Assembly: GCA_029880775.1 (NCBI GenBank)
Contig: JAOUNV010000021.1
Coordinates: 1-11,299, forward strand
Origin: Nitrospinota bacterium
Lineage (GTDB): Bacteria; Nitrospinota_A; UBA7883
Reading direction: 5' to 3'
DNA length: 11,299 nucleotides
Shown here: one piece after another, positions 1-11,299 of the stretch
Layout: the number at the start of each line of letters is the position of its first letter
Numbering within the stretch: position 1 is the stretch's first letter
Notes under the pieces: model-generated
The model's database searches: none
What the model was told of the DNA's origin: nothing
What the model saw: only the letters and a program-made list of their open reading frames with translations
Translations under genes and position numbers: made by a program

Positions 1-100
1 TGTCCTTCTTGCCTTAAGAAAAAGCAGTCCTCAAAGAAGTGAAATCTAAGAAAGAATCGTTAACCTTTTTGGCTCACGTTTTCAGCCCACCATTCCACCA

Positions 101-129
101 TTGACATGTTGCCGCCTGGGGTTTTTAAT
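101..129 (+). promoter_or_regulatory. Candidate sigma70-type promoter for ORF1: TTGACA (101-106), 17-bp spacer, TTTAAT (124-129)
   Basis: Seen in sequence. The -35 is a perfect consensus hexamer. The -10 matches TATAAT at 5 of 6 positions after a 17-bp spacer. It lies about 45 bp upstream of the ORF1 ATG in a locally AT-rich leader. Two GGAG Shine-Dalgarno-like motifs (162-165, 167-170) precede the ATG at 173. Confidence 0.3.
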
Positions 130-172
130 TTAGTAAATCACTAACAGGTAAGCTGACCTCTGGAGCGGAGCG

Positions 173-655
173 ATGAAAATACCAACTACCTTGAAACATA
201 AGCCCGTTATCGTCGTAGAAAACTACGGTGAGGTTGATGGCCGCAATGCCTACAAAACTGACGCCCAGGGGCTCTCTCTCGGGCTCGCCCAGTGGAATGA
301 TCGCGGGAAAGTCGATATCTCCGCCAAAGTATGGCGGCATACCGGCGAAAAATGGTCCCGTCAGTCGGAGGAGCTTCCGCCTCACCGGGTCCTGGATTTG
401 GCGATTCTGGTGTGTCGCTCACGGCAGTACTTTTCGGAAGAAGCTTATCACCATAAAAAGCTCTACGACGAGAACAACACACGGATCGATCGGGTGCCGC
501 TGCAGGGCGACGCCATGACAGTGGAAGTGTGCACGGAGAATCCGATGCTCGACGAAGACATCGCGCTGTTCCAGAAAGCGCTGGGCGAAGATGACGAATT
601 GGTGGGTGAGCGGATGAAAGTGCTGGGCGGGATACTGCGCACATTGGGGTATTAA
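173..655 (+). CDS. Hypothetical protein, 160 aa, no family recognised
   Basis: Longest non-repetitive ORF in this region, with a balanced amino-acid composition, good GGAG ribosome-binding sites and an ATG start. The overlapping ORFs at 207-698(-) and 228-518(+) are Arg/Pro/Ser-rich and typical of high-GC shadow frames. The C-terminus is acidic (EDDELVGERMK). I recognise no motif. Confidence 0.6.
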   Translation: MKIPTTLKHKPVIVVENYGEVDGRNAYKTDAQGLSLGLAQWNDRGKVDISAKVWRHTGEKWSRQSEELPPHRVLDLAILVCRSRQYFSEEAYHHKKLYDENNTRIDRVPLQGDAMTVEVCTENPMLDEDIALFQKALGEDDELVGERMKVLGGILRTLGY

Positions 656-692
656 GCCACGAAACCACTGTCCACCTCAGTTGAGTCCGTGT

Positions 693-774
693 ACCCACAC
701 GTGGGTTGTATACCCGCTCGCGGGTTGTAAACAGGCTAGCCTGCCCGCTAGCGGGCTACAAAACCGCTAGCGGT
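693..774. repeat. Array of five adjacent GC-rich palindromes (possible operator array or REP-like element)
   Basis: Seen in sequence: ACCCAC-ac-GTGGGT (693-706), ACCCGC-tc-GCGGGT (712-725), CAGGCTAGCCTG (732-743), CCCGCTAGCGGG (744-755), ACCGCTAGCGGT (763-774). Three GCTAGC cores fall within 37 bp. Units 1 and 2 are each followed by TTGTA. Unit 4 is followed by CTACAA, the reverse complement of TTGTA. The array lies between the ORF1 stop (655) and the regulator start (885). Confidence 0.6.
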
Positions 775-805
775 TCAACTCCCGCTTCACCCCATCCAAC
801 AGCGC

Positions 806-859
806 CGTTATTGTGGCAAGGGGGTTGTTTGGCCTATAGTATCGTTATTGTGGTACAGG
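806..859 (+). promoter_or_regulatory. Direct repeat CGTTATTGTGG x2 (806-816, 843-853) bracketing a TATAGT -10-like hexamer (835-840). Candidate promoter/operator of the HTH gene
   Basis: Two 11-bp identical copies sit 37 bp apart, with 14 of 17 identity when extended. The TTGTGG at 811-816 could act as a weak -35, 18 bp upstream of the TATAGT. The second copy overlaps the predicted transcription start region, about 30 bp upstream of the ATG at 885. Confidence 0.3.
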
Positions 860-884
860 ATCGGGTTGGCAAAGAGCAATACTT

Positions 885-1664
885 ATGACGGCACTGGAAG
901 GGATAGGCGGAAAGATCCGCAGGCGGCGCGAGGAGCTGGGCTTAAAGCAGGCGGACATCGCCTCCGCCCTGCAGCTCACCGCCCAGGCGGTCTCCAAATG
1001 GGAACGGGGCGAGAACGCGCCAGACATCACCCTGCTGGGCCAGCTTTGCCGCATCCTGGGGGTCTCTGTGGATTGGCTTTTGGGCCTTTACGAGGAGAAC
1101 AAGGATGTGTTCGAGGCCACGGTGCTGGTCTCTGGTGTGCGCGGATTCGCCCGTAAGGCCGCCTCCATGCCCCCGGCGGACGTGGCGGCGTGGGCCAACG
1201 GATTCTTCTACCACCTCACGGAGGCTGCGTTGAAACATGGCGGTGTGCCGGTGAAGCAGATCGGCGACGGCATGCTTTGCTTCTTCTCCGGCGCGAGGCA
1301 TGGGGACAGGGCGGTGGCCGCCGCCAGGCGGGCTGTGGAGACGGGCAGGGATTCCATGACAGTGGCGCTGGTCCGCGGCGAGGTGTACTTAGGGTCACTG
1401 GGGCACCCAGACTATACCCATCCGGACATCATGGGCAGCACTGTGAACGTGGCGTTCCTGCTGTTGGCCGCCGATGGCTCTGGAGCCGTCGGCTCTGGAG
1501 CCGTCGGCTCTGGAGCCGGTGAATCGGATAGCGACACCAGCGTCATCACCGCCACCGCCAATGTGGTGGAAAATCTGGAGGAAAAGGCGCCGTTTGCCGG
1601 GCCTTATAAAAGAAATATCAGCCTTCTGGGCCGCGATGTGGCGGTGTATGAGATCAGGGTTTGA
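885..1664 (+). CDS. XRE-family HTH transcriptional regulator fused to a degenerate class-III adenylate/guanylate-cyclase-like (CHD) domain
   Basis: - N-terminus: LGLKQADIASALQLTAQAVSKWERGENAPDITLLGQLCRILGVSVDWLL is a textbook Cro/C1 HTH.
- C-terminus, CHD-like blocks: TVLVSGVRGFA (cf. V.vLF.DIvGFT), HGGVPVKQIGDGMLCFF (cf. hGG...K.iGDa.mavF) and MTVALVRGEVYLGSLG...HPDIMGSTVNVAFLL (cf. lriGihtG.vv.G.iG...Y.viGdtVNlAsRl).
- Catalytic residues: the first metal-binding Asp is replaced by Gly and the transition-state Arg by Leu. The second Asp (GDG) and the Lys are retained.
- Linker: a GSGAVGSGAVGSGAG stretch sits between the cyclase-like domain and the C-terminal tail. Confidence 0.8.
   Translation: MTALEGIGGKIRRRREELGLKQADIASALQLTAQAVSKWERGENAPDITLLGQLCRILGVSVDWLLGLYEENKDVFEATVLVSGVRGFARKAASMPPADVAAWANGFFYHLTEAALKHGGVPVKQIGDGMLCFFSGARHGDRAVAAARRAVETGRDSMTVALVRGEVYLGSLGHPDYTHPDIMGSTVNVAFLLLAADGSGAVGSGAVGSGAGESDSDTSVITATANVVENLEEKAPFAGPYKRNISLLGRDVAVYEIRV
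1476..1520 (+). repeat. In-frame 15-bp tandem repeat (GGCTCTGGAGCCGTC x2 perfect plus one 13/15 copy) encoding (GSGAV)n
   Basis: Seen in sequence at 1476-1490, 1491-1505 and 1506-1520. It encodes GSGAVGSGAVGSGAG inside the regulator CDS. Confidence 0.85.
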
Positions 1665-1702
1665 TAACAGTTGAACAATAATTATTTAAGGAGAACGAGA
1701 AG

Positions 1703-3121
1703 ATGGGCGCTGTAGCTGAAGCGACGAAAGATTACATCATTAAGGACATCGCGCAGGCGGACCTGGGCCGCAAGGAGCTGGATATAGCCGAGCACGAGAT
1801 GCCGGGGCTGATGGCCACCCGCGAAAAGTATGGCAAAGAAAAACCGCTGAAGGGTGTGCGGATTACAGGCAGCCTGCATATGACCATACAGACCGCTGTG
1901 CTGATCGAGACGCTGGTGGAGCTGGGCGCCGATGTGCGCTGGGCCTCGTGCAACATATTCTCCACCCAGGATCACGCCGCCGCCGCCATCGCCGCGACGG
2001 GTGTGCCGGTCTTCGCCTGGAAGGGGGAGACCCTGGAAGAGTATTGGGACATGACCCTCAACGCGCTCTCTTTCCCAGACGGCAAGGGGCCGCAGCTTAT
2101 CGTGGATGACGGCGGAGACGCCACCCTGGTGATCCATCGTGGATACGCCGCGGAAAAGGACCCGTCCATCCTGGACGAGCCGACCGACAACAAGGAACTG
2201 CAAATCGTCAATAACCTGCTGAAGAAAACCTTGAAGGAGCGCCCCGGCTTCTGGGCCAATGTGGTCAAGGACTGGAAGGGCGTCTCTGAGGAGACCACCA
2301 CCGGCGTCCACCGGCTGTACCAGATGATGGAGCGGGGCGAGCTGCTGGTGCCTGCTATCAACGTCAACGACTCCGTGACCAAATCCAAGTTCGACAACCT
2401 GTATGGCTGCCGCGAGTCGCTGATCGACGGCATCAAGCGAGCCACCGACGTGATGGTGGCGGGCAAGGTGGCCGTGGTGTGCGGCTATGGCGATGTGGGC
2501 AAGGGATGCGCCCAAGCCCTGCGCGGCATGGGCGCGCGGGTGATCGTGACGGAGATCGACCCGATCTGCGCTCTGCAGGCGGCGATGGAAGGTTATCGCG
2601 TGACCACGGTGGAGGACGCCCTGCCGGAGGCGGATATATACGTCACCACCACGGGGAATAAGGACATCATCACCCTGGAGCATATGAAGAAGATGAAGAA
2701 CCAGGCGATCGTCAGCAACATCGGGCATTTCGATAACGAGATCCAGGTGGAAAAGCTGGACGAGTTCGCCGGCGCCAAGAAGACCAACATCAAGCCGCAG
2801 GTGGACAAGTACACCTTCGACGATGGGCGTGAAATATACATGCTGGCAGAAGGACGGCTGGTGAACCTGGGCTGCGCCACGGGCCACCCAAGCTTCGTGA
2901 TGAGCAACAGCTTCACCAACCAGACGCTGGCGCAGATCGACCTGTGGAAGAACAACTACGATGTGGGTGTCTACACCCTCTCCAAGGAGCTGGACGAGGA
3001 AGTGGCCCGCCTGCATCTGGGAAAGATCGGCGTGAAACTGACCACGCTTAGCAATGATCAGGCGGATTACCTGGGCGTGCCGGTGAACGGGCCGTACAAG
3101 CCATCGCACTACAGGTACTAG
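1703..3121 (+). CDS. ahcY: Adenosylhomocysteinase (S-adenosyl-L-homocysteine hydrolase), long bacterial form, 472 aa
   Basis: Diagnostic AhcY sequence throughout. The NAD-binding motif is [34 protein letters not shown]. Substrate-domain blocks are [13 protein letters not shown] and TTTGVHRL. The C-terminal KPSHYRY tail matches the family. A strong AAGGAG ribosome-binding site sits 8 nt upstream of the ATG. The 475-aa ORF on the opposite strand is a GC-driven shadow. Confidence 0.95.
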
Positions 3122-3168
3122 ATTCGAGCCTTCATTCGCATAAGAAAGTCAACGTCGGGTGTCATCTT

Positions 3169-3205
3169 CATAGTGAGCGAGGTTACTCAAGCCTCGCTCA
3201 CTATG
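3169..3205. terminator. Perfect 14-bp inverted repeat hairpin (CATAGTGAGCGAGG / CCTCGCTCACTATG, 9-nt loop) 48 bp after the ahcY stop
   Basis: Seen in sequence. The stem is perfect but no U-tract follows (GTATATCTCTC), so it is not a canonical intrinsic terminator. It could be a stabilising stem-loop, a protein-binding site, or a Rho-dependent or otherwise atypical terminator. Confidence 0.35.
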
Positions 3206-3560
3206 GTATATCTCTCAGGTCGTAATTATTCCCATTAAACCATTGAGCGCATAATGGATTTTTACAGCCCCAGTTCAACTTCAACATAAATAATTATATT
3301 GATTTTGTCATTGAAGCGGATGAATCACTTAACGGTAAAGTTCGAATATCACAATATAGTCGTGGTTTTATTTTCGCGGATTTAAATTCATCAAAGTCCC
3401 GAAGGATCAGAAGGCTAAATGCATATCCTCCTAACAATATGAATGGTATCCCTCAAAGTGACTGTGCGGCGGGATAAAATTAAACGACGCGAAAAACGGG
3501 ATCGTGAAACAACGGGCAACAGGTTTTTCAAGGCGCCTAGACCTGTGACCCATTAAATAA

Positions 3561-3636
3561 TGGTAGGCGGAGAGGGGATCGAACCCCCGACATCCAGCTT
3601 GTAAGGCTGGCGCTCTCCCAGCTGAGCTATCCGCCC
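3561..3636 (-). tRNA. tRNA-Val (anticodon UAC), CCA encoded
   Basis: Reverse complement gives GGGCGGA-TA-GCTC-AGCTGGGA-GAGC-G-CCAGC-CTTACAA-GCTGG-ATGTC-GGGGG-TTCGATC-CCCTC-TCCGCCT-A-CCA. This is a standard cloverleaf with a 7-bp acceptor stem (G1-U72 wobble), 4-bp D stem with GG in the loop, 5-bp anticodon stem, U33, anticodon TAC and purine at 37. The T-loop is TTCGATC and the 3' CCA is encoded. Confidence 0.9.
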
Positions 3637-3986
3637 ATTTATTTGATCACCGGCGCTTTCATAAATTTATGGAAGATAAGTAAAGCGAAATCGCTCCGTT
3701 ATTCTCCTTCAGGCCTGGAAAACATCGCTATTCTACACTGCCCCGACGCAAAAGCAAATTCTTCTTTAAAAGAGTGACGTGGGGCAGTCGCCTCCAATCC
3801 GCTGGCCACGATGATGGCCGGCGCCCTGCTGGTGATATGGCGCTGAGCCTTTTCACAATGTCGACCCAATACCGAAACAAGGCCCATGGCATTCCTCCGG
3901 CTGCAAAAGAGATACCTGATGGATGTGTGGTATGATGCGGGCGTATAAGTAAATATCTGAAATACTTTCTTGTCATTTTTCTATTT

Positions 3987-4733
3987 GTGGTGGCTTACGC
4001 TATCCTGTTGATTCCCAATTATTTCCTGGCCCAGAAGATATTGCGGTTGGAGGAGCACCACCACATTGATATCAAGGATAAAATAGTTCCCGTTCGTTTG
4101 CCTTTGGTCCTGAAATACGAACTGGGCGAGCGGGCCACTGAAAACCCCGCTGTGGCAAAAATAATTGAGCAGGCGGGCTTGAGCCCTGGCGATGCGGCGG
4201 CTCTCCCATCGGAACATCCGGAGCTAGTGGACATAGAGTGGGTAAGACGCGCCAATCCATACCCGCCACTCCTGTATGGATATTACAGTACCGGCTACCA
4301 TTATGGTTTTGTGTCTTTCGGATATATGGGAGTGGATGACGATTACCACCAGATCACTTTTTATCGGGGTGAGGCGGACAGCACCCCCTCATTATTTATT
4401 CCTAAAACCAGAGGATCCCAAACTGGCTGGGGTGATTATTTTATTGAATACACGGTATACCTGACGAGCAATTCATTTAAGAACTCTACCCGCGACACTT
4501 TGGCTTCTGGGAAAGCAAGGGAGCTTTCAAGCCCACTTTATCCGCCTGACATCGACAGGATAGACTGGAATACATATGAGGGAGGAAGCTATAACGGGTT
4601 TGAGGAAATAATCATGGCTTTGATTGGTCCCATATTGGAACTGGGGTTGATCGCATTTTTCTACATGATCTACAGCGCAGGCTACCGGCGCGGCTCTATG
4701 CGCTCTGCTGGCCTGCAAGATGGCTCCGTCTGA
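3987..4733 (+). CDS. Hypothetical Tyr/Gly-rich protein with hydrophobic N-terminus and C-terminal transmembrane anchor, 248 aa. GTG start, start site uncertain
   Basis: This is the only long ORF in 3640-4900. GC is noticeably lower than the flanking genes. The N-terminus AYAILLIPNYFLA and the C-terminus IIMALIGPILELGLIAFFYMIYSAGY are both hydrophobic. The central region is rich in Y/G/S/T (YGYYSTGYHYGFVSFGYMG). There is no obvious Shine-Dalgarno before the GTG at 3987, and the first in-frame ATG is far downstream, so the true start is unclear. Confidence 0.5.
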   Translation: MVAYAILLIPNYFLAQKILRLEEHHHIDIKDKIVPVRLPLVLKYELGERATENPAVAKIIEQAGLSPGDAAALPSEHPELVDIEWVRRANPYPPLLYGYYSTGYHYGFVSFGYMGVDDDYHQITFYRGEADSTPSLFIPKTRGSQTGWGDYFIEYTVYLTSNSFKNSTRDTLASGKARELSSPLYPPDIDRIDWNTYEGGSYNGFEEIIMALIGPILELGLIAFFYMIYSAGYRRGSMRSAGLQDGSV

Positions 4734-4903
4734 CATAACCTCGCACAAGAAAACGGCCTAAGCGCGCAAGGAGGCAAGACCGCTTTTCAAGCCGCCCCAT
4801 TGGGGGAGGTGACGGGTTGTTTGAAAACGCCATCCGGAGCATTTGCGCCCCGGACGGCGAGACTCTCCTGTTAACTTCCTGCTAGAGTTTCCCCTGCCCG
4901 GTT

Positions 4904-6688
4904 CTACTTTTTCTTGGCTGGCGTAGCGGCCACACCTGGCATTCTGGTGATATTGCTATCCCCCAGGATGGCGAAGGCGCCTTCAAGGCTTCCGGCTCCA
5001 CCACTCCCCTGCACCAGGATGCGAGGGACTTTCACTATATTCGGGTTCTCCTTGGCCGCCGCCAGCACTTCCTTGACGATGGCCAAGTGCATCGTCCGCT
5101 CCGGCCCCAGCACCTGGGCCTGGGCCTTCTGCCCATCGGCGATAGCCCGCAGCCGCGCCTGCTCACCCTCACCTTTCAGCTTCAACGCTTCTTTCTGGAA
5201 CTGGGCCGCTTTTCGTTCGATCTCCGCTTTCATCAAGGTGCCTTGCTGATCCGCTTCCGCCTTCGATTTTTCAGACTCGATTCGCTTCTCCTGCGCCACT
5301 CGCTCCTGCGTATATGTCTGCTCCATCTGGGTGGCCAGCTGCTCCCGGCGACGCGCCACCAGCAGCTCCGGCGGGATCACCGGATCGCCGAATCGAATCT
5401 CCGTGACGGTGACGCCTGTTTTTTCCGCCTCCACCTGAATGGCCGCCAGCACGGCGTCCTCCAGTTGTTGCCGCCTATCCTGCAGGTCCAGCACTTGCCG
5501 CACATCACCCTTTTCCGCTTTCCCCGGGTGGCTCTGCACATTGGAGCCGGTCACGTTTCGCACGATGCTACGCACCTTCGGTGTGATGATCTTCTCTTCC
5601 ACTTCATGCAGCCCCCCCACCGACGCCACCACGAATGGCGCGTCCTCCGGCTTCACCTGGGCCAGGATGCGGATCTCCTGAGGCACTTCCCACCCTTCTA
5701 CTCGCAAGATCACCGCGTCTGCGGCGGCGTGCTCCGGAACCGGGATCACCTCTTTGCGCTCCGACTGCTCTATGGAGCCGTCTTGGCGCACTTTCAGGTC
5801 TATAAAGCGCCGGGTGTATCCGCCGGCGTATTCCCATCTTTGCACGCGAGTGTCCACCAGGTGTATCTCATAGGCTTTCTGGTTCAGGTAATATCGCCCA
5901 GGCAGGAAGACCTGGTTCCACACACCCCGACATCCTTTCGGCACCAGCGGCACAGTCAGGGAGCGGTCCTCCATGATGATAGGCTCGCATTCCTCCATCG
6001 GCCTGGTGGCGATATTGGATTTAATGACTCCCACAAAACCGGCCGGCACGTTGGTGGCCCTGAATTGATCCCCTTTGGTCCGCACCTCGAACAGGTAACG
6101 GTTGATGCGATACTTGCCAGGCTTCAGCACTGTGGACTGAGGACCCTTTTGGCCGGGAGGGATGCCCTCCTTGCCATTGATAAACACTTCCGGATCGAGC
6201 ATTTCCTCGATCCGCTCATCCGGCCATGCGCTGGCCAGAAGCTGGTTTTCCCCCAGAGGCTTGCCATCCTTTGCCACGATGAAGCCATAGCTCCCCTCCG
6301 GCACTTCTATGATGGGCAACTGCTCCACCTGGTACAGCACCTTTAACAGCAGGATAATGTGCAGCCCCGGTGGGAGAATCCGCGCCTGGGGCCCCATCTC
6401 TCCATTGGCGGCGATGATCCTGCCCGGCGCCAGGCTACTTCCCAAAAACACCTTTTTCAGGTGGCCTGTTTTGTTGGAATCCACGATCACGAACGAGGTG
6501 CTCAACAGCGCCATCACCAGCGCGCCCACCGCGCCTGCGCGGATGAAAAACGGAATGTAACCGGCCAATGACTTGTTTTGCAAAAGACCGGAAGTGATTA
6601 AAACTGGCGCGATCCTTTCGGCCAAAACCGCCATAAGCAGCAAGCCGACTATGATGACGAGATAAAAGATTAAAGAACCCATGACCAT
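4904..6688 (-). CDS. Flotillin-like SPFH/band-7 protein (YqiK/FloT-type), 594 aa
   Basis: - N-terminal transmembrane segment: LIFYLVIIVGLLLMAVLA.
- Central SPFH core: about 200 aa.
- C-terminal coiled coil: a long Ala/Glu/Lys/Gln-rich stretch (ERVAQEKRIESEKSKAEADQQG...AQFQKEALKLKGEGEQARLRAIADGQKAQAQ) typical of flotillins, and a C-terminal GSGG tail.
- Start: a GGGGGA Shine-Dalgarno is better spaced for the second Met (6682) than for 6688, so the start may be 6682. Confidence 0.8.
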   Translation of the reverse strand: MVMGSLIFYLVIIVGLLLMAVLAERIAPVLITSGLLQNKSLAGYIPFFIRAGAVGALVMALLSTSFVIVDSNKTGHLKKVFLGSSLAPGRIIAANGEMGPQARILPPGLHIILLLKVLYQVEQLPIIEVPEGSYGFIVAKDGKPLGENQLLASAWPDERIEEMLDPEVFINGKEGIPPGQKGPQSTVLKPGKYRINRYLFEVRTKGDQFRATNVPAGFVGVIKSNIATRPMEECEPIIMEDRSLTVPLVPKGCRGVWNQVFLPGRYYLNQKAYEIHLVDTRVQRWEYAGGYTRRFIDLKVRQDGSIEQSERKEVIPVPEHAAADAVILRVEGWEVPQEIRILAQVKPEDAPFVVASVGGLHEVEEKIITPKVRSIVRNVTGSNVQSHPGKAEKGDVRQVLDLQDRRQQLEDAVLAAIQVEAEKTGVTVTEIRFGDPVIPPELLVARRREQLATQMEQTYTQERVAQEKRIESEKSKAEADQQGTLMKAEIERKAAQFQKEALKLKGEGEQARLRAIADGQKAQAQVLGPERTMHLAIVKEVLAAAKENPNIVKVPRILVQGSGGAGSLEGAFAILGDSNITRMPGVAATPAKKK

Positions 6689-6837
6689 CCCCCAGCAATA
6701 TGCCTCGCCTGTTCAGGCGCAGACCTCTGTTACCACCACCGCCGAGGGCCAGCCAGCCTCCGGCGTAATGGATGGCATTATACAGCGCGAGGGAAATAAT
6801 CGACAAAGTTATCTGACACGCCGAGGCGCCAGCGGCT

Positions 6838-7578
6838 TTAAGGCCACGTTTCGCTCTGGGGGGAGTCGTAGTATTCCACCCACTCAAAGCCGAGCCACCC
6901 CGGCCTGGTGTATACGATAACTTCGGAGACGTTAGGTTCCAGCGTTTTGTAGAGCGCCTGGTGTATTCTCACCTGGAAGTATTTGCCGTCTGGAGTCCAC
7001 GGCTTGACGACCATAGAATAGTCGGGCGTTGATTCGTTGGAGCCTGCCGCCAGGAACTTGTCCGCCACTAGGGCGATATGCTCTGTGGCGAAGCTTTCGT
7101 CCTGAGTGCCGTTGAGCACGATCACCAAATAATATCCGTTGTAAATGAATAGCGGCGCGGCCAGGACGCTGGAGAGCAAAAAGTGTTTCCACGAGCCTGT
7201 GCTCCCCCGCATCAGCAGAAAAAATACTATGGCTATAAAAATCGCCAGCGCCACCAGTGAATGCGTCAGAGCGTACTGAAAAACCGCAGGCTCATCCACA
7301 AGATCGCTGTAATCCATTTTCATAAGGGTAAGCACACCGATGGAATTCATCATGAGGAATAGAAAGCCATAAATAAATATAATTTTCCCCAGAAAGGAGT
7401 CCAGCTTGGCCGACACAGCCGGCTTGGGCATAGGCTTGGCGGGTGGATTATCCTTTTTCAGGTTGATCCTGTAGTAAAAAGGGACTTCCTTTTCCGGGGC
7501 TTGCTCCTCGGGAGTCGCTTGCCCATCCGCCTCGCCGCCTAAATCGTTTTCCGGTCTATTCTCCAAAGTATTTCCCAT
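6838..7578 (-). CDS. Membrane protein, 246 aa: acidic/Pro-rich N-terminal tail, three predicted TM helices, about 90-aa C-terminal domain. Possible flotillin-associated partner
   Basis: Predicted TM segments are IIFIYGFLFLMMNSIGVLTLM, LVALAIFIAIVFFLLM and LLSSVLAAPLFIYNGYYLVIVL. It lies immediately upstream of the flotillin gene on the same strand, in the position NfeD/YqiJ-type partners usually occupy. I cannot recognise an NfeD OB-fold signature in the C-terminal domain. GC is lower than the core genes. Confidence 0.55.
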   Translation of the reverse strand: MGNTLENRPENDLGGEADGQATPEEQAPEKEVPFYYRINLKKDNPPAKPMPKPAVSAKLDSFLGKIIFIYGFLFLMMNSIGVLTLMKMDYSDLVDEPAVFQYALTHSLVALAIFIAIVFFLLMRGSTGSWKHFLLSSVLAAPLFIYNGYYLVIVLNGTQDESFATEHIALVADKFLAAGSNESTPDYSMVVKPWTPDGKYFQVRIHQALYKTLEPNVSEVIVYTRPGWLGFEWVEYYDSPQSETWP

Positions 7579-7655
7579 TTTAAACCACTAAATTATCAAA
7601 GTTAATATTAAGTACCAGGGATGGCGTAAAACGGGTATACAAGCCGCTTAACGCC

Positions 7656-8504
7656 TCAAATGAGAGTGAAGCCAAGTCTTAAAAATGCGCCCCAGGTGAG
7701 GAAACTGACTTCCACTTGCCGGGTATCACGTGAATACTCGAACTGTGCGCCCAGAGAAACAAACAGTCTTTTGTACAGATCATAATCAAGCGATGACCGG
7801 ATAGCAAAAGCCTGCAAATTGCCCGGATGACCAAAATTACCTGGAAAACTGTCGTGATAATCCACACTCATTGTGGATGGGCCGTTTCCGTCCTGGAAAT
7901 TCTCCACCGAGTGATTATACCCTGTAAGGGAGAGTACAGGGGCGGATATTTCGACCAAAAGATGAGTTCTGTCGCCAAAGGAGCGAGCCATGGCCATGGC
8001 CAGGCCTGTGGAAAAGCTGAACGCCGAATATAGATCCTGGTTCCGGTAAATATAAGACCTGTATCCGCGCCCACCCATCCCCAGCTTCACACCCAGGTAT
8101 ATCGCTCCGGCGCCTTCCGGGCCCCAATCCGATATTTTCTTCCCCCCTGAAAATTCAAGACCGGCGTTATAAATCTGGTCCGTTGTATCGGGTCCCTTGG
8201 CGCCACTGCTGTCCCCTTCGCTCCAGTCCGCGGCGTAAATGCCATACCTCACCACGATAAAGCCATGCTTACCGGTCCTGATGAATGAAGCCTCAAACCC
8301 AGACGCGCCAGTAGATAAATCACCTTCTTCCCCCAGGCTTTCGTTCACCGTTGACTGATTATACAAAAAACCTAATGCCAGACTTTTTCCTTCATAAGAA
8401 GATTCAGCAAAAGCCTGAGACACAGACAGAATCAGAATCAGCGCGATGGGGGAAACCAGAAAACCACAAATGAACCTGTTGAGTGGCCTTTTTTTAGCAC
8501 GCAT
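7656..8504 (-). CDS. Putative outer-membrane beta-barrel protein with Sec signal peptide, 282 aa
   Basis: The signal peptide is MRAKKRPLNRFICGFLVSPIALILILSVSQAFA|ESS (positive n-region, hydrophobic core, AXA cleavage site). The mature part is Gly/Ser/Tyr-rich with alternating hydrophobic dipeptide periodicity. The C-terminal strands are YDLYKRLFVSLGAQFEY and VEVSFLTWGAFLRLGFTLI. AGGAG lies 8 nt upstream of the ATG at 8504. Confidence 0.6.
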   Translation of the reverse strand: MRAKKRPLNRFICGFLVSPIALILILSVSQAFAESSYEGKSLALGFLYNQSTVNESLGEEGDLSTGASGFEASFIRTGKHGFIVVRYGIYAADWSEGDSSGAKGPDTTDQIYNAGLEFSGGKKISDWGPEGAGAIYLGVKLGMGGRGYRSYIYRNQDLYSAFSFSTGLAMAMARSFGDRTHLLVEISAPVLSLTGYNHSVENFQDGNGPSTMSVDYHDSFPGNFGHPGNLQAFAIRSSLDYDLYKRLFVSLGAQFEYSRDTRQVEVSFLTWGAFLRLGFTLI

Positions 8505-8521
8505 CGATTCCGCTCCTGATT

Positions 8522-8545
8522 ATAATGTTAACGCCTGAACATTAT
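8522..8545. promoter_or_regulatory. Inverted repeat ATAATGTT-N8-AACATTAT in the divergent intergenic region
   Basis: Seen in sequence. It has perfect 8-bp arms and lies 18 bp upstream of the OMP start (minus strand) and about 120 bp upstream of the aminotransferase start. A candidate -35 TTGCAA (8605-8610) for the plus-strand operon lies further downstream. Confidence 0.3.
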
Positions 8546-8667
8546 GAAAGCTTGGCATATGGCTGTCAAACATACCTTTCTCGATCCCTCCGGTCCCCAA
8601 TACATTGCAACGGCGGTGAAAACCATTTAAGATTAGGGGTTCGTTACGCATATTATAGATCAATAAA

Positions 8668-9858
8668 ATGAACGAAGAAAAACCGAAAAGAAAATTCTCC
8701 AGGATAGAGCGCCTGCCACCATATGTGCTGGCGGAGGTGACAAACCTGCGCGCCATCGCCCGCCGGGCTGGCGAGGATATCATAGACTTCGGCATGGGAA
8801 ACCCGGACATGCCCACCCCAGATCATATAGTGGAAAAGCTGGTGGAGGCGGCCCGCAAACCACCCAACCATCGCTACTCCGCCAGCCGGGGCATCACAAA
8901 GCTGCGCCATGCCATATGCGACTGGTACCGGCGCAAGTTCGATGTCTTCCTGGACCCGGAGAGCGAGGCCATCGTCACCATCGGCAGCAAAGAAGGGATC
9001 AGCCACTTGATGCTGGCCATCACCGCGCCGGGGGACTCTGTGCTGGTGCCGTCCCCCACATACCCGATCCACGCCTACGCCGTGGTCATCGCCAATGGTG
9101 ACGTGATCAACGTGCCGCTGACCAAGGATGACGACTTTTTTACGAACCTGACCATAGCTTTCGAGCGGACCTGGCCCAGGCCGAAGGCGATGTTGCTCAA
9201 CTTTCCGCACAATCCCACCACTGTGTGCGTGGACCTGAACTTTTTCGAGAAAGTGGTGGATTTTGCCAAAAAGCATGACGTGATGGTGGTTCACGACCTG
9301 GCCTACGCCGAGATATCCTTCGACGGCTATCAGGCGCCTTCGTTTCTGCAAGTTCCCGGCGCCAAGGATGTGGGCGTGGAGATGTATACCCTCTCCAAGT
9401 CATACAACATGCCTGGATGGCGGGTCGGATTCTGCGTGGGTAATCCGGAGATGGTATACGCGCTCCAGCGGATCAAAGGATACCTGGACTATGGAATGTT
9501 TCAGCCGATACAAATCGCCAGCATTATAGCGCTCAATGGTCCCCAGGATTGTGTGGACGAAATCAGGAACACATACCAGAGCCGCCGCGATGTGCTGGTG
9601 GATGGGCTCAACCGGATCGGGTGGGAGATCGAAAAACCGATGAGCACCATGTTCGTCTGGGCGCCGATCCCGGAAAAGTACAAGGATATGGGGTCGCTGG
9701 AGTTTTCCAAGCTGCTGCTGGCCAAGGCGAAAGTCGCCGTCAGCCCCGGAGTAGGCTTCGGCGATGGCGGTGACGGATTCGTGCGCATCGCCCTGGTGGA
9801 AAACGAGCATAGAACCCGTCAGGCGATCCGCGGCATCCGCGACGCGCTGAAACTTTAA
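8668..9858 (+). CDS. Class-I (fold type I) PLP-dependent aminotransferase, AlaA/AspC/DapL-like, 396 aa
   Basis: The N-terminus [15 protein letters not shown] is typical of this family. The NFPHNPT block is present, and [13 protein letters not shown] carries the PLP-binding lysine. The C-terminal VRIAL motif is present. Substrate specificity cannot be assigned from sequence alone. Confidence 0.9.
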
Positions 9859-9872
9859 GGAATGGCGCCATC

Positions 9873-11186
9873 ATGAAACCTGTACGTATCGGATTAATAG
9901 GCTTGGGAGCGGTGGGAAGCCAGGTGGCGCGGATCCTCACAGAGGAGGCCGAATCCCTGCAAGCCAGAGCCGGGATACCCCTGCGGCTGGTGAAAGTGGC
10001 CGTCCGCGACACGGGAAAGAAAAGGGGTTTCACTCCGGATAGCGGCCTGCTCACAACAGAGCCTTTCGATGTGGTGAACTCTCCAGAGGTGGATATCGTG
10101 GTGGAGCTGATCGGCGGGGAGGACCCTGCCTTCGACCTGGCCATGGCCGCCGCCCGAAAGCGAAAAGGATTCGTCACCGCCAACAAGCTGCTGCTGGCGC
10201 TGCGAGGGGCGGAAGTCTTTTCCGCCTTCGAGAAAAGCGGCGCCCGGCTGGGGTTCGAGGCGGCGGTGGCTGGCGCCATACCCATCATCCGCTCCATCCG
10301 CGAAAGCTTTTCCGGCGATCAGGTGGAGCTGATCCAGGGAATCGTCAACGGCACCGGCAACTATATATTAAGCCGCATGACCGACGAGGGGAGCCGGTTT
10401 GAAGACGTGCTCAAAGACGCCCAGGCGCTCGGTTACGCCGAGGCGGACCCCACCTTGGATGTGGAGGGGATAGACTCCGCCCACAAGGTCGCCATCCTGG
10501 CGGCGCTGGCTTTCGAGACCATGGTCGATTTCTCCGACGTATACACCGAAGGGATAACCAATATCACACCGGAGGATATAATCAGCGCCAGGGAGCTTGG
10601 GTATCGGATCAAGCTTCTGGGAGTGGCAAGGAGAGTGGATGACACCATCAGCTTGCGGGTTCACCCCACAATGCTGCCCCAAAAGGACCTGATGGCCAAT
10701 GTGGATGGCCCCTTCAACGCCATCCATATACTTTCCAGCCAGGCGGGAGCGAGCACTCTTGTGGGCCGGGGCGCCGGAGGAGGCCCCACCGCCACAGCCG
10801 TGCTCTCCGATATCGTGTCGATGGCCAGAGACATCGCCTCTGGCGCAGGCGCGCGAATGGCGCCACTGGGCGCTCCCGTGGGGGGGATGGACAAGCTCCC
10901 GGTGATCCCCATAGATGAGCTGGAGTCGGAATATTACCTTCGCTTCACCGTGCCGGACCGGCCAAACGTGCTGGCGCAGATCGCCGGAGCCCTGGGGGAT
11001 AATGGCATATCCATAGCCTCCATGATCCAGCGTGAGAGAAAGGAAAATCAGCCTGTGAGCGTGGTGCTGATGACTCACAACGCCGTGGAGGCGGACATGA
11101 AAAAATCGCTGGCCCACATCGAATCGTCCGGCATTTGCCTGGCGCCAACAATGATCATAAGGATAGCCGAAAATGGCCGGGACTAA
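9873..11186 (+). CDS. hom: Homoserine dehydrogenase with C-terminal ACT regulatory domain, 437 aa
   Basis: The N-terminal Rossmann motif is VRIGLIGLGAVGSQVA. The catalytic-domain blocks are ANK...EAAVAGAIPII, NGTGNYIL and LGYAEADPTLDVEG.DSAHKV. The C-terminal ACT-like segment is YYLRFTVPDRPNVLAQIAGALGDNGISIASMIQ. It starts 15 nt after the aminotransferase stop. Confidence 0.93.
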   Translation: MKPVRIGLIGLGAVGSQVARILTEEAESLQARAGIPLRLVKVAVRDTGKKRGFTPDSGLLTTEPFDVVNSPEVDIVVELIGGEDPAFDLAMAAARKRKGFVTANKLLLALRGAEVFSAFEKSGARLGFEAAVAGAIPIIRSIRESFSGDQVELIQGIVNGTGNYILSRMTDEGSRFEDVLKDAQALGYAEADPTLDVEGIDSAHKVAILAALAFETMVDFSDVYTEGITNITPEDIISARELGYRIKLLGVARRVDDTISLRVHPTMLPQKDLMANVDGPFNAIHILSSQAGASTLVGRGAGGGPTATAVLSDIVSMARDIASGAGARMAPLGAPVGGMDKLPVIPIDELESEYYLRFTVPDRPNVLAQIAGALGDNGISIASMIQRERKENQPVSVVLMTHNAVEADMKKSLAHIESSGICLAPTMIIRIAENGRD

Positions 11187-11299
11187 ATATGTGATACTCC
11201 TCGGCGATGGCATGCCGGACTGGCCTATCGAAGAGATGGGCGGCAAAACCCCGCTTGCCCTGGCCGCCACCCCAAACCTGGACAGGATGGCTCGCGATG
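11173..11299 (+). CDS. 5' end (42 codons, truncated by window edge) of an ApgM-family 2,3-bisphosphoglycerate-independent phosphoglycerate-mutase-like protein
   Basis: Translation from the ATG at 11173 gives MAGTKYVILLGDGMPDWPIEEMGGKTPLALAATPNLDRMARD. This matches the characteristic N-terminus of archaeal-type cofactor-independent PGM (PF01676/PF10143) proteins: KYVILLGDGMaD...ELGGKTPL...TPNmD.la. It overlaps the hom stop by 14 nt, suggesting translational coupling. It is absent from the ORF track only because it runs off the window. Confidence 0.55.
   Translation, partial: MAGTKYVILLGDGMPDWPIEEMGGKTPLALAATPNLDRMARD

Follow-up and report, generated by a model that had tools for sequence, protein, structure and literature searches.

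A candidate one-component regulator with a degenerate class III cyclase domain, encoded next to ahcY in Nitrospinota and other phyla

The question raised by this locus is why a DNA-binding domain should be joined to what looks like a broken nucleotidyl cyclase, and why the gene for this fusion should stand directly in front of ahcY, the gene for S-adenosylhomocysteine (SAH) hydrolase. The locus lies in an 11,299-nt stretch of DNA from a Nitrospinota bacterium (contig JAOUNV010000021.1, positions 1 to 11,299 of the forward strand), which is called the window here. SAH is a potent inhibitor of all S-adenosylmethionine (SAM)-dependent methyltransferases and cells must therefore sense it. The account that we favour, and that we consider reasonably probable, is that the fusion protein is an autoregulated one-component factor of the regulator-ahcY operon, which would sense an adenosyl metabolite in a dead cyclase pocket and activate transcription from sites at -42 and -63. 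The protein is probably a methyl-cycle regulator that has so far gone undescribed.

The link between the regulator and ahcY, which we presume to be the regulated gene, is the strongest result. It involves the following features of the window:

885..1664, + strand: regulator gene, an ATG-to-stop open reading frame of 259 amino acids with an XRE helix-turn-helix (HTH) and a degenerate class III cyclase-homology domain
1688..1693, + strand: Shine-Dalgarno sequence AAGGAG for ahcY
1703..3121, + strand: ahcY, S-adenosyl-L-homocysteine hydrolase, 472 amino acids (Pfam AdoHcyase E 6.9e-149, AdoHcyase_NAD E 4e-85)

The regulator stop is separated from the ahcY start at 1703 by 38 nt, the same distance that an earlier, preliminary description of this DNA had given. 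Because this spacer holds the Shine-Dalgarno sequence, and because no terminator was predicted between the two genes in a scan of the + strand from 600 to 1800, we read the regulator and ahcY as an operon. The arrangement is widely conserved. We collected 54 family loci besides the window, with flanks of up to 10 kb. In 31 of 51 informative loci the gene that follows at once in the same direction is ahcY, while the remaining neighbours differed from locus to locus. The ahcY-linked loci belong to Nitrospinota, Nitrospiraceae, Planctomycetota, Hydrogenedentota, Latescibacterota, Sumerlaeota, Armatimonadota and others. Where ahcY is missing the next gene often belongs to the methyl cycle or to one-carbon metabolism, for example full-length MetH (locus L004 of our sample), MetE (L096) or adenosine deaminase (L003). 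Further downstream partners are ThyX (L018, L024), a pterin-binding protein (L021) and a pyridoxal phosphate-dependent enzyme (L013/L025), and at loci with no obvious link to the methyl cycle the neighbours were AcrB, a DEAD helicase and an aldo-keto reductase. The preliminary description had offered a connection with ahcY as a tentative guess, which has been strengthened by the conserved pair, by the methyl-cycle partners found elsewhere and by the conserved operator at the operon promoter that is described below.

Control of ahcY by a riboswitch was also considered and rejected, as neither in the window nor in 10 related loci did the Rfam covariance models for SAH and SAM riboswitches reach the gathering score. 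Rfam matched just one tRNA and one cobalamin riboswitch in these sequences. The latter is at positions 1855-2054 of L096, approximately 4 kb upstream of a regulator-metE pair. As metE encodes the B12-independent methionine synthase, two layers of control may meet at that locus.

The identity of the C-terminal half of the protein was the next thing to establish, and here Pfam on its own was weak. The Guanylate_cyc model matched the regulator sequence below threshold (E 0.012, 15.6 bits against a cut-off of 21.9, residues 77-141), while phmmer found solved cyclases (2w01 at E 1.2e-6, plus 6fht, 4p2m and 1wc1). Two family profiles, one from 44 full-length relatives and one from 20 domain-only relatives, covered the entire catalytic domain of Cya2, CyaB, OaPAC, RhGC and Rv1625c with E-values from 2e-13 to 6e-7 (2e-13 to 3e-12 for Cya2, 2w01; 1e-10 for CyaB, 3r5g; 5e-9 for Rv1625c). 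An AlphaFold2 model of the monomer had a predicted local distance difference test (pLDDT) score of 86.9, and when it was compared to the PDB with Foldseek the top matches were all class III cyclases, with probability 1.0 and E-values from 2e-10 to 1e-7. Searched against 1.84 billion proteins, a profile of the C-terminal domain matched 34,089 class III superfamily representatives, and 49 members of the family scored E<=1e-30. The C-terminal domain is unambiguously homologous to class III cyclases, a point settled by the family profiles together with the fold search. The combination of an XRE HTH with a cyclase-homology domain, which was the central claim of the preliminary description, is thus borne out by Pfam HTH_3 and by the profiles against solved cyclases. 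Its expectation that Pfam would recognise both halves held for HTH_3, which is above threshold, but not for Guanylate_cyc, which stays below it and needed profiles and structure to be identified.

The residues of the former active site were mapped through five independent alignments to solved cyclases, all of which agreed:

1107..1661, + strand: degenerate cyclase-homology domain, residues 75-259, with key positions G84, K124, D128, D181, N188, L192 and S246
Metal-Asp 1: G84, in VSGVRGF, lost; aligned with the Asp of Cya2, CyaB, RhGC and OaPAC
Substrate Lys: K124, kept
Metal-Asp 2: D128, in IGDG, kept
Purine Asp: D181, kept
Transition-state Asn: N188, kept
Transition-state Arg: L192, in VNVAFL, lost
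Phosphate-binding Lys of the C-terminal KG motif: S246, lost

The losses of the first metal Asp and the transition-state Arg, and the retention of the GDG Asp and the purine Lys, had been read correctly in the preliminary description; in the alignments to solved cyclases they are G84 and L192, and D128 and K124, respectively. The same pattern runs through the 120 closest homologues. At position 84, 116 of them carry S, G, A, T or V, and the four with Asp have L or I at position 192; at position 192, 112 carry L, G, M or some other residue that is not Arg, and the eight with Arg have S or G at position 84. The complete catalytic set was found in none of the 120. D128 is retained in 117. K124, D181 and N188 show little or no variation across phyla, and in the alignment of the 120 sequences K124 and D181 do not vary at all. 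The signature SKDDNLK occurs in 45 of the 120, and many members from outside the Nitrospinota still have the KG-motif Lys. In active cyclases the Lys and Asp hold the adenine ring and the Asn holds the ribose; these are contacts to the substrate and not structural residues. We conclude from these patterns that the domain is most likely a pseudo-cyclase, in which selection appears to have preserved the residues that contact adenine and ribose but not those for the metal and triphosphate, which decayed.

The mapping predicts that the regulator has no cyclase activity. One could still propose that it is a working adenylate or guanylate cyclase, perhaps together with a partner subunit, and that the HTH merely localises it. 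Several family members are indeed labelled 'class 3 adenylate cyclase' by the pipelines of the Joint Genome Institute (JGI), and a full catalytic hexad is present in rare relatives. In the regulator, however, a required metal ligand is replaced by G84 and the transition-state Arg by L192, so that one residue is missing from each half-site, the C1-type and the C2-type alike. Because of this a partner could rescue activity only by supplying a complete site itself, and no second cyclase gene lies nearby at any locus examined. Given the agreement of the five alignments and the family-wide signatures we rejected this proposal, and give it next to no credence.

The relatives with a full catalytic set are informative in another way. 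At three loci a few distant family members, P0130 (L102/L103) and P0142 (L104), combine an HTH with the complete DKDDNRK hexad. Pfam Guanylate_cyc gives a proper match to them, and they may be DNA-bound active cyclases. None of these loci is linked to ahcY, nor is the near-complete L094, although L102 has an operator of the same type as that described below. In contrast, R192 is absent in all 31 ahcY-linked members. Losing catalysis therefore goes hand in hand with being recruited to the methyl cycle, and degeneracy is a trait of the ahcY-linked clades and not of every HTH-cyclase fusion. The existence of full-set members also implies an ancestor that bound ATP.

What the dead pocket now binds is approached through the retained residues and the neighbouring genes. 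The most likely ligand is SAH, with adenosine second. SAH is the most economical choice because MetH, MetE and adenosine deaminase drive the unfavourable hydrolysis of SAH by removing its products, and because the two SAH-responsive systems known so far, SahR and the SAH riboswitch, both have ahcY at the core of what they control (PMC4239095).

Two other uses of the domain have to be weighed at this point. The first is that it senses an adenine nucleotide (ATP, ADP, AMP or cyclic AMP, cAMP), which would tie ahcY to energy charge or to cAMP signalling. The mostly retained metal-Asp 2 (D128), the KG-motif Lys of many members outside the Nitrospinota and the ATP-binding ancestor implied by the complete-set members would all agree with this. 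The residues that hold the metal and triphosphate tell a different story, as Asp 1 and the Arg are lost in all ahcY-linked members and Lys246 is lost too in the clade of the window, and the members that have kept the full set are not the ahcY-linked ones. We think it quite unlikely that a nucleotide is the signal. The second is that the domain binds no ligand at all and acts only as a dimerisation or oligomerisation module for cooperative binding to tandem sites, making the protein a constitutive autoregulator. Cyclase-homology domains are obligate dimers, arranged head-to-tail, and the 21-bp phasing of the sites described below points to cooperative binding along one side of the helix. Against this, the substrate contacts K124, D181 and N188 change hardly or not at all from phylum to phylum, unlike the catalytic residues, which drift, and a regulator blind to any ligand would leave its tight and specific linkage to genes of the SAH cycle unexplained. 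A role in dimerisation only is very doubtful in our judgement.

The DNA-binding half of the protein is less unusual. Two features belong here:

915..1079, + strand: Cro/C1-type HTH domain, residues 11-65, with the segment QAVSKWERGENAPD invariant in the family (family alignment columns)
1476..1518, + strand: in-frame 15-bp tandem repeat, 2.9 copies, 100% matches (TRF)

Pfam HTH_3 matches residues 11-65 with E 7.6e-16 (58.3 bits against a cut-off of 23), HTH_31 matches the same domain with 43.4 bits against a cut-off of 27, and the nearest solved structures are the 434 and P22 c2 repressors. We considered whether the protein could be a phage repressor or an antitoxin and rejected this, as the NCBIfam matches to RstR, DicA, HipB and MqsA were below threshold and confined to the HTH, and across phyla the gene has the neighbourhood of a metabolic gene on the chromosome. 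The tandem repeat is a separate matter and concerns the C-terminal domain. It encodes a GSGAV-rich insert of 16 residues (200-215) that is present in the window sequence only; 119 of the 120 relatives have an alignment gap at its position, and AlphaFold2 gives residues 201-212 a pLDDT below 50, describing a disordered loop. The insert looks like a recent expansion by slippage that is tolerated in a surface loop.

Upstream of the regulator gene there is a conserved tandem motif at the promoter:

776..792, + strand: distal operator element CAACTCCCGCTTCACCC, with its CAAC 21 bp upstream of the proximal CAAC; centre near -63
797..813, + strand: proximal operator CAACAGCGCCGTTATTG, whose last three bases, TTG, open the -35 hexamer; centre near -42
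811..840, + strand: predicted sigma-70 promoter of the regulator-ahcY operon, with -35 TTGTGG (811-816), an 18-nt spacer and -10 TATAGT (835-840)

In 29 of 45 loci the strict form of the motif, CAAC-N9-[AG]TTG, is found 47-95 nt ahead of the start codon of the regulator, compared to approximately 0.015 matches expected per 270 nt. A second CAAC is found at an offset of 21 bp upstream in 22 of 27 loci, whereas any other offset occurs at most once. The consensus of the distal copies is CAAC-N5-CGTyA, without the TTG. A position weight matrix trained on 27 sites was applied to six loci that were fetched later and held out, and it scored their upstream regions at 19-27 bits with almost nothing comparable elsewhere in 555 kb. 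At L003 the sole strong site precedes the adenosine deaminase gene. In the rest of the window no site exceeded 10.4 bits, and this includes the regions upstream of the aminotransferase and homoserine dehydrogenase genes. The closest relatives, L105-L107 (63-68% identity), retain both elements and the -10. This is strong comparative evidence for the tandem motif as a candidate operator to which the regulator would bind near its own promoter.

Some further sequences around the operator were looked at. The sequence CGTTATTGTGG, which is the right half of the proximal operator, has a second copy at 843-853 directly after the -10, and this copy could be an extra autoregulatory half-site; as a third half-site of the operator it was rejected, since it is not conserved in L105-L107. 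A perfect 19-bp palindrome, TCAACGAC-N3-GTCATTGA, seen in L088 and L085, was rejected as the form of the site because the distal sites have no outer right arm and the TTG is better explained as part of the -35. Between the DUF6530 gene upstream and the operator, at 694-775, there are four GC-rich palindromes, CCCACACGTGGG, ACCCGCTCGCGGGT, CCCGCTAGCGGG and ACCGCTAGCGGT. This cluster is unique within the window and its RNA fold beats that of shuffled sequences (z -3.1). It was rejected as a part of the conserved operator, being found only here and absent from the closest relatives.

The position of the operator relative to the promoter bears on the direction of regulation. A scan with the consensus promoter found one promoter-like site, ending at 840, compared to a mean of 0.3 in shuffled sequences. 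A -10-like hexamer, TAnnnT, lies 17-19 nt past the operator TTG in 15 of 27 loci when judged by a strict criterion, compared to 0-4 at shifted offsets. Since this hexamer follows the proximal TTG at such a spacing, and since the distal copies have no TTG, the TTG is best read as the start of the -35, which places the centres of the two elements at about -42 and -63. Beyond the TTG the -35 hexamers are weak, for example TTGCCG or TTGTGG. Sites at -42 and -63 are the classical positions of class II and class I activators such as CRP, and lambda cI bound at OR2 activates PRM. By analogy to these the site geometry favours activation.

Repression by occlusion of the -35 region is a serious rival to activation. 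It would follow the logic of SahR, in which the protein without ligand would repress by covering the -35 region and an adenosyl ligand, SAH, would release it from the DNA. The proximal element does share its TTG with the -35 hexamer, the nearest relatives of the HTH are phage repressors, and the known SAH-responsive proteins SahR and McbR repress (PMC4239095). Yet the elements lie upstream of the -35, not over the -10 or the transcription start, and as the distal element has no TTG this triplet looks like a signal for the polymerase and not a contact of the regulator. In addition, centres near -42 and -63 together with a weak -35 are typical of promoters that depend on an activator. We regard repression of this kind as unlikely.

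Taken together these observations lead to the following mechanism for the activator that we prefer. The 434/P22-like N-terminal HTH would bind the two tandem CAAC-N5-CGTyA elements, 21 bp apart, which abut the -35 of the regulator's own promoter, the predicted promoter of the bicistronic regulator-ahcY operon. The C-terminal domain would descend from a class III adenylate cyclase that lost catalysis along with metal Asp 1, the transition-state Arg and the gamma-phosphate Lys, while selection would have preserved the adenine contacts (Lys and Asp) and the ribose contact (Asn). The former active site of a head-to-tail pseudo-cyclase dimer could then accommodate an adenosyl compound that has no triphosphate, and occupancy of this pocket may switch the regulator to the form that activates the promoter from -42 and -63. 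In this way a build-up of SAH would raise the level of SAH hydrolase, or in other lineages that of MetH, MetE or adenosine deaminase. The analysis establishes the identity of the domains, which residues were lost and which kept, the conserved synteny, and the conserved motif with its place at the promoter; the ligand, the sign of the regulation and the geometry of the dimer are our proposals. We find good comparative support for the regulator as a putative one-component regulator with a sensor domain derived from an enzyme.

Several points weigh against this account. We infer SAH as the ligand from the gene neighbourhood and the retained residues only, and the retained D128 and Lys/Asp pair would fit ATP, ADP, AMP or cAMP as well. 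The dimer pocket is assumed from what is known of class III cyclases, the structural model being a monomer. Contact with the -35 is compatible with repression too, which is how most XRE proteins act. The strict motif is missing from 16 of the 45 upstream regions, approximately 40% of the loci have no recognisable methyl-cycle neighbour, and our view of the regulon covers the operon and flanks of up to 10 kb.

Comparison to known systems can help to place the family. SahR, an ArsR-family protein of Proteobacteria, is likewise a local regulator beside its targets, with ahcY at the core and a regulon that reaches metH, metE and related genes (PMC4239095), and it is distributed in line with the recycling of SAH by way of AhcY. 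There is no homology between SahR and the regulator, however, as Pfam and NCBIfam scans of the regulator give XRE HTH families and a weak Guanylate_cyc but no ArsR. Their operators also differ (ATC-N10-GAT for SahR, CAAC-N5-CGTyA for the present family), and SahR is a repressor whereas the site positions of the present family suggest activation. The resemblance should thus be seen as a functional analogy only. The SAH riboswitch also controls ahcY, and often further methyl-cycle genes, in response to SAH (PMC4239095), but it is an RNA element and the control proposed here uses a protein and a predicted DNA operator.

Active class III cyclases (Cya2 2w01, CyaB 3r5g, CyaC 1wc0, Rv1625c and OaPAC) have the same fold and belong to the same family over the whole catalytic domain, and the regulator shares with them the Lys/Asp pair that specifies adenine, the Asn and the second metal Asp. 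Unlike them it has no metal-Asp 1, transition-state Arg or phosphate Lys, and it scores below the Pfam gathering threshold. Because the domain is fused to a DNA-binding domain and not to a sensor domain, it is presumably the input and not the output. The 434, P22 c2 and lambda cI repressors of phages have the nearest HTHs and operators of similar size (14-17 bp) in tandem beside the -35, and the proximal site near -42 resembles OR2, from where cI activates PRM. The context of the regulator, on the other hand, is chromosomal, metabolic and conserved across phyla, not that of a prophage, and its C-terminus has a cyclase fold in place of a LexA/S24-type or cI oligomerisation domain. A last parallel is found in degenerate GGDEF sensors, such as the GTP-binding GGDEF domain of PdeA and the PelD and PopA proteins that bind cyclic di-GMP. 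There too a cyclase-type palm domain loses catalysis, keeps nucleotide binding and becomes a regulatory input. Those sensors differ in belonging to another family and in having enzymatic or localisation outputs, not an XRE HTH, and the ligand in the present case is probably free of phosphate.

The family itself is large. A search gave 939 matches at E<=1e-3, and each of the best 120 has the same architecture in approximately 240 amino acids. It is spread over at least 10 phyla, mostly uncultured, and nearly all of its records are metagenome-assembled genomes (MAGs), including a protein identical to the product of 885..1664 in a Nitrospinota MAG; the window itself matches an ENA contig of 33 kb. 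Its taxa are Nitrospinota, Nitrospiraceae, Planctomycetota, Hydrogenedentota, Latescibacterota, Sumerlaeota, Omnitrophota, Armatimonadota, Syntrophia, Polyangia and Treponemataceae, and a metagenome scan with a profile of the cyclase domain only gave 16 loci. The preliminary description had considered that the fusion might turn out to be common and already annotated with a function. Common it is, with hundreds of sequences, but none has been assigned a function: the machine labels read 'helix-turn-helix domain-containing protein' or, for the several members from JGI pipelines mentioned above, 'class 3 adenylate cyclase'. Its author knew of no characterised regulator with this architecture, and in agreement with this the literature searched holds no account of an HTH-cyclase-homology architecture or of an XRE regulator of ahcY. 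The cyclase-like DUF2652 proteins treated in PMC4886424 are a separate family. One family record appears to be misannotated. The conserved operator and promoter of L107 lie downstream of the point where the database call at 1687-2532 (281 amino acids, GTG start) begins, so the annotated start codon is almost certainly wrong and the true start is an internal ATG giving MTLLEGIG....

The remaining genes noted in the window can be described briefly. The DUF6530 gene at 173-655, upstream of the regulator, is full-length (Pfam E 1.3e-78) and is not a conserved neighbour elsewhere. A tRNA gene lies downstream of ahcY at 3564-3636 on the - strand (Rfam, 68 bits). An Aminotran_1_2 aminotransferase and an ACT-domain homoserine dehydrogenase, genes of the aspartate family and of methionine precursors, are found at 8668-11186, 5.5 kb downstream.

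If the proposed mechanism is true, this would be the first cyclase-homology pseudoenzyme to serve as the ligand-binding input of a transcription factor, and the family would have preserved an evolutionary series from an HTH-fused active cyclase (DKDDNRK) to a pure sensor (S/G-KDDN-L). The protein of approximately 240 amino acids and its 38-bp operator pair could also become a biosensor for SAH or adenosine. The broadest form of the proposal, in which the XRE-pseudo-cyclase is a third, independently evolved sensor of SAH or adenosine, a class-II-type activator of the methyl cycle and a record of that series from active cyclase to sensor, is one that we put forward tentatively and would sooner doubt than accept. 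The known SAH sensors, namely SahR, McbR and the SAH riboswitches, cover Proteobacteria and Actinobacteria, and we know of no mechanism for the control of ahcY in most other phyla. The present family provides a concrete candidate for this control in at least 10 phyla, most of them uncultured.

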